A stretch of 64,000 bases of DNA from a virus (Duplodnaviria; Caudoviricetes), in IMG/VR virus record IMGVR_UViG_3300031949_001696; one strand, given 5' to 3'. Below, piece after piece: positions 6,681-6,936 of the stretch. The stretch's first letter is position 1. Every line of letters begins with the position of its first letter. Both the position numbers and the translations under genes were made by a program. The notes under the pieces were generated by a model. It searched no databases. It saw only the letters and a program-made list of their open reading frames with translations, and was not told the origin of the DNA.

Positions 6681-6709
6681 TTGACGTTCGCTCGCGATCA
6701 CGCTACATG
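6681..6709 (+). promoter_or_regulatory. Sigma70-type promoter for leader peptide/tRNA-Leu unit
   Basis: TTGACG-17 nt-TACATG. Confidence 0.55.
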
Positions 6710-6722
6710 GCGATCGTCCCCG

Positions 6723-6776
6723 ATGCGCACGTTCCGGTTATCCGCTCGACTTCGCTCGCTACGCTTGCCGGCCTAG
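6723..6776 (+). CDS. Putative Leu/Arg-rich leader peptide MRTFRLSARLRSLRLPA
   Basis: Four Leu codons TTA, CTT, CTA, TTG, all rare here; 3' end lies within hairpin 6758-6792; precedes tRNA-Leu. Confidence 0.6.
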   Translation: MRTFRLSARLRSLRLPA

Positions 6777-6808
6777 GCTAGGCAGGCGTAGCTCGCAGCT
6801 TGTCTTGA

Positions 6809-6883
6809 GCCGGCATAGCCCAACGGAGAGAGGCCGCGCACCTAAAATGCGCTCCAGTGCGCGTTCGACTCGCGCTGTCGGCA
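6809..6883 (+). tRNA. tRNA-Leu(TAA), atypical (short variable region, C33)
   Basis: Acceptor GCCGGCA/TGTCGGC, anticodon arm GCGCA-CCTAAAA-TGCGC, T arm GCGCG-TTCGACT-CGCGC. Confidence 0.8.
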
Positions 6884-6887
6884 TGAC

Positions 6888-6936
6888 GTCGCGGTAGCCC
6901 AACCTTGGTAGAGGCGGAGCGTTAAGCGCGCACGAC
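6888..6936 (+). pseudogene. Truncated tRNA (5' half only, Leu-like)
   Basis: GTCGCGG-TA-GCCCAACCTTGGTAGAGGC D arm like the preceding tRNA; no T arm. Confidence 0.5.

Follow-up and report, generated by a model that had tools for sequence, protein, structure and literature searches.

A conserved promoter, mini-ORF and hairpin unit ahead of tRNA-Leu arrays in uncultured giant phages is a candidate ribosome-sensed leader

The closest described systems are the leaders trpL, hisL, pheL, leuL (Leu_leader in Rfam) and pheM of pheST, in which a short ORF carrying cognate codons lies at the 5' end of the transcript. In the amino-acid operon attenuators this ORF overlaps a GC-rich hairpin located before the regulated genes. 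The leader described here, found ahead of tRNA-Leu genes in a group of giant phages, shares both features. However, the genes to be regulated are the tRNAs themselves, and the cognate codons are dispersed, one per isoacceptor, rather than arranged in a tandem run. The phage leader also differs from the amino-acid attenuators in that it lacks a U-tract terminator, an antiterminator alternative and a Shine-Dalgarno sequence, and it matches no Rfam leader. In the translational attenuation of ermC and cat, there is likewise a single hairpin, and a ribosome on the leader ORF melts the helix and thereby frees a downstream element. There, a drug stalls the ribosome and a ribosome-binding site is exposed, whereas we propose that in the phage leader slow decoding would cause the stall and melting would free the 5' end of a tRNA precursor. 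T-box riboswitches resemble the phage leader in sensing the state of a specific tRNA and in controlling genes of the translation apparatus, and the phage leader presents a CUU within an invariant internal loop. However, T-boxes do not need a ribosome, span 200-300 nt and are built from Stem I and a T-box bulge, and nothing of this kind was found in the phage leader. In high-GC Streptomyces, genes with the very rare UUA codon need a single tRNA, the tRNA-Leu(UAA) of bldA, for their expression, and the phage leader is comparable in this respect. The bldA tRNA controls target genes, whereas the UUA-containing ORF of the phage stands before the tRNA gene itself.

Control of tRNA genes is usually attributed to promoter strength and growth-rate signals alone, and our literature search did not turn up regulation of such genes by a leader peptide. 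What phage tRNA arrays are for is debated, with codon supply on one side and escape from tRNA-cleaving defences on the other (PMC10264068). New in the present analysis are an alignment of 12 genomes with covariation, the pattern of one codon per isoacceptor, a geometry without a terminator, and the pairing of a Leu unit with a Ser unit.

We analyzed a 64-kb stretch of DNA (the window), which is part of a 332,853-bp contig with a G+C content of 58-67%. The window contains many genes of unknown function, homing endonucleases and tRNA genes. The Leu unit is located on the plus strand within a 307-bp gap and both flanking genes are on the minus strand, so that the upstream gene is divergent from the unit and the downstream gene convergent with it. 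The third-position G+C periodicity present in both flanking genes was absent across 6650-6900. The flanking genes had no matches in Pfam or PHROGs, and public phage records contained neither a DNA nor a protein match to the window. In IMG/VR, neither relatives of either flanking gene nor a copy of the tRNA were found, and the neighbour protein was without a relative in the GTDB genomes. A 15-mer from the leader gave 58 matches in IMG/VR, all of which were chance matches and were discarded. Elsewhere in the window, GIY-YIG and LAGLIDADG homing endonuclease genes (9942-10619, 13846-14799) flank the tRNA clusters. Two tRNA genes on the minus strand at 11705-12007 score 46-47 bits on the tRNA model and have anticodon-loop regions that are 1 and 3 nt overlong; ARAGORN reads a 4-base anticodon (gatg) in one of them.

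Table 1 Features of the Leu and Ser units in the window, with the basis of each assignment.
Feature	Position	Strand	Basis or remark
Flanking gene (upstream)	6165-6641	-	third-position G+C periodicity
Promoter-like site, TTGACG-N17-TACATG	6681-6709	+	read from sequence; conserved spacing
-35 element, TTGACG	6681-6686	+	spacer 17 nt
-10 element, TACATG	6704-6709	+	spacer 17 nt
Leader mini-ORF, 17 codons + TAG, MRTFRLSARLRSLRLPA	6723-6776	+	start, frame kept in relatives
Leader Leu codon TTA	6738-6740	+	
Leader Leu codon CTT	6750-6752	+	
Leader Leu codon CTA	6759-6761	+	
Leader Leu codon TTG	6765-6767	+	
Stop codon TAG of leader mini-ORF	6774-6776	+	
Conserved RNA hairpin, whole	6744-6799	+	RNAalifold, pair counts
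Outer helix, GCUCGA with UCGCAGC	6744-6749 with 6793-6799	+	RNAalifold
Invariant 8-nt internal loop, CUUCGCUC	6750-6757	+	RNAalifold
Main stem, 12 bp, one G.U	6758-6769 with 6781-6792	+	RNAalifold, pair counts
Predicted tRNA-Leu(UAA), short-variable-arm type	6809-6883	+	ARAGORN, Infernal, ortholog alignment
5' half of tRNA-Leu(GAG) ortholog	6888-6933	+	aligned with L002, L094, L005, L072 and L097 genes
Flanking gene (downstream)	6949-8127	-	third-position G+C periodicity
Ser-rich mini-ORF, MTSHLSSLSSRSRS	12938-12982	+	conserved in L005, L072, L097
Ser unit, whole	12938-13003	+	hairpin 12971-13000, TAG stop inside

We found 206 homologues of the 392-aa neighbour, and many of these lie on contigs of 240-500 kb. 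We examined the loci around 13 of these homologues and added one metagenome scan. A tRNA array consisting of Leu tRNAs only adjoins the gene of the 392-aa neighbour in 10 distinct contigs. In total, 12 copies of the leader were identified, one in the window and 11 in other contigs of uncultured giant phages from soil and sediment, and each of them immediately precedes a tRNA-Leu array. With an nhmmer profile built on the sequence ahead of the arrays, each array contig gave one strong match and there were none elsewhere. L097 carries the array in inverted orientation with respect to the neighbour gene, and the leader went with it. In more distant relatives the leader is absent, and these have either a lone tRNA-Leu or no Leu array at all.

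The arrays occur in two forms. In the long-arm form (L004, L006, L009, L073, L096), the tRNAs are 82-87 nt long and follow the order CAA, TAA, CAG, GAG, TAG. In the short-arm form (L002, L005, L072, L094, L097), to which the array of the window belongs, they are 72-79 nt long and follow the order TAA, GAG, CAG, CAA. Short-arm tRNA-Leu genes, with an arm of 5-6 nt, score 45-62 bits as tRNA. Comparison of the two forms suggests that the long arm of a class II tRNA family was lost in one lineage. In the GTDB genomes, a pattern search returned one leader match, L100 (DATJXL010000204.1), where the leader heads a 24-tRNA array. L100 is a 9.2-kb contig binned with a Kofleriaceae MAG (Myxococcota), which is a weak hint at the host or an artefact of binning. 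On the minus strand of L100 (6149-6493), a TTGACG-N17-TATCCT site, a 57-codon ORF and a canonical hairpin-plus-T-run terminator precede tRNA-Tyr; we rejected this ORF as a Tyr leader because it is not Tyr-rich.

Several other genes were observed around the Leu arrays of the relatives. Ro60/TROVE, RNA ligase or RtcB genes and sub-threshold matches to YrlA-like Y RNA are located within a few kb of the arrays in L005 (7287-7402 and 8055-9023), L097 (1-1054) and L096 (4825-6149), and in L096 the RtcB gene is divergent from the leader promoter. The array of L002 is interrupted between tRNA-Leu(GAG) and tRNA-Leu(CAG) by a metallophosphatase gene (5340-5900) that has a strong Shine-Dalgarno sequence.

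The promoter noted in the preliminary description of this locus was found upstream of the ORF as a TTGACG hexamer, a 17-nt spacer and TACATG. The 17-nt spacing between TTGAC and GCTA(C/G)A is fixed in 11 of the 12 copies with a variable spacer sequence. The exception is L100, where a different and AT-richer promoter-like region precedes the leader. No promoter in 6400-7100 passed a strict scan for the sigma-70 consensus, which the site fails because position 6 of its -10 hexamer is G.

A 17-codon ORF is present as described earlier, although the start implied at that time was one base off and is corrected here to the ATG at 6723. We confirmed that this ORF uses TTA, CTT, CTA and TTG and contains neither CTC nor CTG. 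Its Arg codons (5) outnumber its Leu codons (4). Among 61 likely genes of the window, TTA, CTT, CTA and TTG together make up 24% of Leu codons and CTC plus CTG 76%; TTA alone accounts for 0.9% and CTC for 47%. We then took a census of all short ORFs in the window (12-25 codons, any ATG or GTG start, n = 631). Two of them contain at least four distinct Leu codons including TTA, and one of these two is the leader mini-ORF. This rarity, combined with the conservation of the unit in 11 other contigs, excludes chance as the origin of the ORF.

The start codon and its in-frame position are constant in all 12 copies (ATG in 10, GTG in 2). This includes L100, in which the ATG is still in place while the sequence before the start and the 12 nt after it are unrelated to those of the other copies. 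Codons 1-13 contain no indels in any of the 12 copies, and several indels were found in the 15 nt upstream and in the hairpin loop. Every copy contains exactly one TTA, every copy contains CTT, and CTC occurs in none. In L096, TTC-CGG-TTA is replaced by TTA-CGA-CTA, by which the TTA is shifted two codons upstream (codon 6 to codon 4). At codon 13 the copies have CTA or CTG, with TTG after it. Each leader has 4-5 Leu codons among its 17-23 codons, all of them rare and all different, and five different Leu codons were reached in three independent variants (L096, L100 and the near-identical pair L005/L072). CTA was also found in leaders whose arrays are without tRNA-Leu(UAG). The stop codon lies in the hairpin loop in nine copies (TAG in seven, TGA in two) and is a TAG in or just past the 3' arm in the other three.

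At the level of the peptide, the copies vary. The N-terminal residues are freely replaced and the C-terminal length of the mini-ORF differs between copies. pN/pS was 0.76 in the frame of the ORF and 0.79 in another frame and is therefore not lower by any meaningful amount in the ORF frame, so that no selection on the peptide itself is detectable. Codons 9-12 (CGA CUU CGC UCG) do not vary at any position, four-fold degenerate sites included, which points to a constraint at the RNA level.

The end of the ORF was confirmed to lie in the 12-bp hairpin reported before, with the TAG stop in the loop. Across the copies, the outer helix pairs GCUCGA with UCG(C)AGC. In an 11-sequence alignment, 94.6% of the cells were paired, compared with 28-43% when the partner columns were slid. 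In the main stem, 94% of the cells were paired. Changes on both sides were found in 4 of the 12 pairs of the main stem and in 5 of the 24 pairs tested in the whole structure, and none of 500 shuffles reached the observed covariation score. In L005 and L072, the stem sequence has been swapped for another one and the pairing is retained. The G.U pairs of the structure would be C.A mismatches on the other strand, which places the structure in the tRNA-strand RNA. The folding energy of the leader is ordinary relative to shuffled sequences (z = -0.8). The copy in the window carries a 5-nt duplication in the hairpin loop. Across all copies, the distance from the base of the hairpin to the first base of the first tRNA is 0-13 nt. 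A candidate third helix would join CCGGUU (codons 5-6) to the 5' end of the first tRNA; it is 94% paired with one covarying pair, and we treat it as unproven because the partner positions in the tRNA differ between the two lineages.

In none of the 12 copies is the hairpin followed by a U tract; its tail is UUGUCUUGA, AUUC, ACUUC, AUUU or nothing. A terminator scan of 6400-7100 found none, and RNAalifold and RNAfold predicted a single hairpin with its outer helix and no mutually exclusive antiterminator helix. Canonical hairpin-plus-T-run terminators exist elsewhere in the same phage group. A cmscan of 6640-6960 with E up to 10 returned no Rfam leader or riboswitch, Leu_leader included; its only results were a weak tRNA-clan match and two chance snoRNA matches.

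The gene that follows the hairpin in the window had been read as tRNA-Leu(TAA). This assignment stands in that the gene is the ortholog of tRNA-Leu(TAA) genes found at the same place in the relatives (anticodon loop CUUAAAC, 47-55 bits); it needs qualification in that the variable region is 5-6 nt, without the long arm of a canonical class II tRNA-Leu, and in that position 33 is C instead of the near-universal U, which the orthologs keep. A cloverleaf drawn by hand has a 7-bp acceptor stem, a 3-bp D stem, a GCGCA/UGCGC anticodon stem and the T loop UUCGACU. The anticodon loop is CCUAAAA (6841-6847) with C33 at 6842, A73 is at 6883, and CCA is not encoded. Compared with the orthologs, the gene has C33, A38 and two extra D-loop bases; all four stems are intact and include a compensatory A7-U66 change. 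ARAGORN labels the gene Phe(aaa) and Infernal gives a sub-threshold tRNA-clan match of 20 bits. The odd ARAGORN call is explained by C33 and the 2-nt insertion in the D loop. Judged from its alignment, the gene is best described as a tRNA-Leu(UAA) with an abnormal anticodon loop. In the same window, U33 is kept in tRNA-Arg(UCU) and in both tRNA-Ser genes, in contrast to the C33 of tRNA-Leu(UAA).

A second Leu-like remnant, also reported earlier, proved to align base for base with the first half of tRNA-Leu(GAG). It holds the 5' strand of the acceptor stem, the D arm and the anticodon arm, with an anticodon that now reads AAG (6924-6926). It breaks off past the anticodon stem, and what else the array once held has been deleted as far as the end of the neighbouring gene. 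The CAG and CAA genes are missing from the window. The sequence thus describes a decayed array, in which the leader would now drive one atypical tRNA-Leu(UAA) and half of a tRNA-Leu(GAG).

The preliminary description had suggested a search for ORFs rich in the cognate amino acid upstream of phage tRNA genes. We scanned 85 tRNAs of the family in this way, and the search yielded the Leu unit and a Ser unit only. The Ser unit is located about 6 kb from the Leu unit, shows no clear homology to it and has the same layout. Its mini-ORF lies between a tRNA with a CAT anticodon and the pair tRNA-Ser(CGA) and tRNA-Ser(GCU), and its hairpin ends 3 nt before tRNA-Ser(CGA) at 13004. A TTGACG-N17-TAGTTT promoter is carried by this Met-Ser operon. 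Of the 631 short ORFs in the window, the Ser mini-ORF is the single one with at least 50% Ser. Relatives of the Ser unit were found in L005 (1998-2080, minus strand), L072 (about 690-770, minus strand) and L097 (4124-4209), with the leaders VTSRLSSSSSSSRS, VTSHRLSSSSRSSRS and MMSFLSSRSSSSSRS, respectively. The Ser leaders of the four genomes contain 7-9 Ser in 13-15 codons (50-69%), with 8-9 Ser in L005, L072 and L097. Those of the relatives start with ATG or GTG, and they use both Ser codon boxes. Two independent length changes of 3 nt were found among the Ser leaders, and the stem is kept around a variable apex. CGCUCG is common to the Leu and Ser leaders and is too short to claim homology between them.

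Two further observations concern translation termination. TAG ends 10 of the 12 Leu mini-ORFs (TGA ends the other two) and all four Ser mini-ORFs. A short release-factor-like gene is located directly 3' of the tRNA-Ser pair, at 1125-1670 in L005, where it has PCRF and RF-1 domains, and at 13361-13882 in the window.

The start of the Leu mini-ORF is 9-13 nt after the -10 element (13 nt in the window), from which a 5' UTR of about 2-9 nt and thus a near-leaderless mRNA would be expected. A Shine-Dalgarno sequence before the start was absent in 11 of the 12 copies. In the genes of the window, 33% of longest-ORF starts have one, against a background of 12%. The strongest argument that these frames are read is that two unrelated sequences share one design and that each is matched to the tRNAs that follow it. 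The conservation of the unit, its ORF features, the hairpin covariation, the linkage to Leu arrays and the Ser parallel are directly observed, whereas we infer that the ORF is translated, in which direction the control works and what its molecular target is. On this basis, we see about an even chance that the Leu unit is a cis-acting, ribosome-sensed leader of a phage tRNA-Leu operon.

In such a leader, transcription would begin a few bases before an ORF bearing one codon per Leu isoacceptor, and the codons displayed would be UUA, CUU, CUA or CUG, and UUG, and never the common CUC. The last codons of the ORF and its stop would form the 5' arm and loop of the hairpin, whose 3' arm would end within the 0-13 nt before the first tRNA. 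A ribosome lingering on a poorly decoded Leu codon would keep the hairpin open, while run-through and termination would let it close. Any ribosome in the second half of the ORF would open the hairpin, and would do so for longer when Leu decoding is slow. The open or closed state would then set the yield of mature tRNA-Leu from the array, with the closed hairpin lowering this yield and ribosome dwell relieving the effect. RNase P requires a single-stranded 5' leader. The closed hairpin could hinder RNase P, disturb the folding or stability of the first tRNA, or invite cleavage. Since no copy has a U tract, we suppose that the hairpin acts on processing, folding or stability and not as an intrinsic terminator. 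The opposite sign of control is possible, as is a Rho-type mechanism acting on a C-rich untranslated leader.

The preliminary description had proposed leader-peptide attenuation as a sensor of tRNA-Leu loss. Its layout of a sensing leader agrees with the conserved promoter-ORF-hairpin unit before Leu arrays and with the Ser parallel. Attenuation in its classical form was not borne out, given the absence of a U tract, an antiterminator and a Shine-Dalgarno sequence and of any sign of purifying selection on the peptide. The same proposal's link to anticodon nucleases is contextual, and it draws on the RNA-repair genes that neighbour the arrays in relatives. Phage tRNAs with altered anticodon loops have been described as escaping anticodon nucleases (PMC10264068).

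Of the other explanations, a structured 5' leader of the tRNA precursor that acts purely as RNA, for example as an RNase III or RNase E site, a stabiliser or a protein-binding site, with an incidental reading frame, deserves to be taken seriously, although we think it unlikely. It would fit the invariance of CGA CUU CGC UCG and of the 8-nt internal loop, the covariation of the hairpin, the missing Shine-Dalgarno sequence and the absence of selection on the peptide. However, it leaves unexplained why the start codon is kept in all 12 copies, even in L100 with its unrelated flanks, why the TTA of L096 moved in frame, and why the absence of indels is restricted to the frame. It also does not account for an unrelated leader of tRNA-Ser with 50-69% Ser codons and 3-nt indels. 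Functional micropeptides that are merely co-transcribed with the tRNAs, cationic Arg/Leu peptides in one case and Ser/Arg peptides in the other, would account for frames that are open in all copies. We consider them highly implausible: pN/pS is near 1, N-terminal residues are freely replaced, C-termini are of unequal length, and the match to the amino acid of the downstream tRNA would have to be a coincidence twice.

Classical transcription attenuation, with the hairpin as an intrinsic terminator whose formation is blocked by stalling at the Leu codons, would be suggested by the combination of a promoter, an ORF with cognate codons and a GC-rich hairpin overlapping the end of that ORF. We regard it as improbable, given that the U tract is missing in all copies, the terminator scan was empty and no mutually exclusive antiterminator helix is predicted, while the same phage group uses canonical hairpin-plus-T-run terminators elsewhere. 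Moreover, a ribosome in the second half of the ORF would melt the hairpin whether stalled or not. A different doubt concerns the copy in the window, which could be a relic that is conserved by recent descent only and regulates nothing useful. The second tRNA cut after its anticodon stem, the loss of the CAG and CAA genes, the C33, D-loop insertion and sub-threshold Infernal score of the remaining tRNA, and the 5-nt duplication in the hairpin loop are all consistent with such decay. However, this tRNA retains its four stems and the compensatory A7-U66 change, and the promoter, ORF and stem of the window are intact, so that we hold the relic to be a doubtful reading.

The ribosome-sensed leader can be extended, with considerable reservation, to a general proposal that giant phages carry modular translation-gated tRNA switches. 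Each switch would consist of a near-leaderless mini-ORF with one codon per isoacceptor (Leu or Ser) and with its end folded into a hairpin next to the first tRNA, and dwell on a hungry codon would decide whether the precursor matures. Such a switch would act as a post-transcriptional sensor of tRNA depletion or cleavage for each isoacceptor, without recourse to termination. We find it rather unlikely that this proposal holds in its entirety. The natural variants of the leader, with GTG starts, a moved TTA, swapped stems and a replaced promoter, are ready-made constructs for experiments. If the reading is true, a leader that gauges the decoding of the codons of its downstream tRNAs would provide direct feedback on tRNA supply. 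Phages would then monitor the decoding capacity of their hosts, and the unit would represent a compact and portable sensor of individual isoacceptors.
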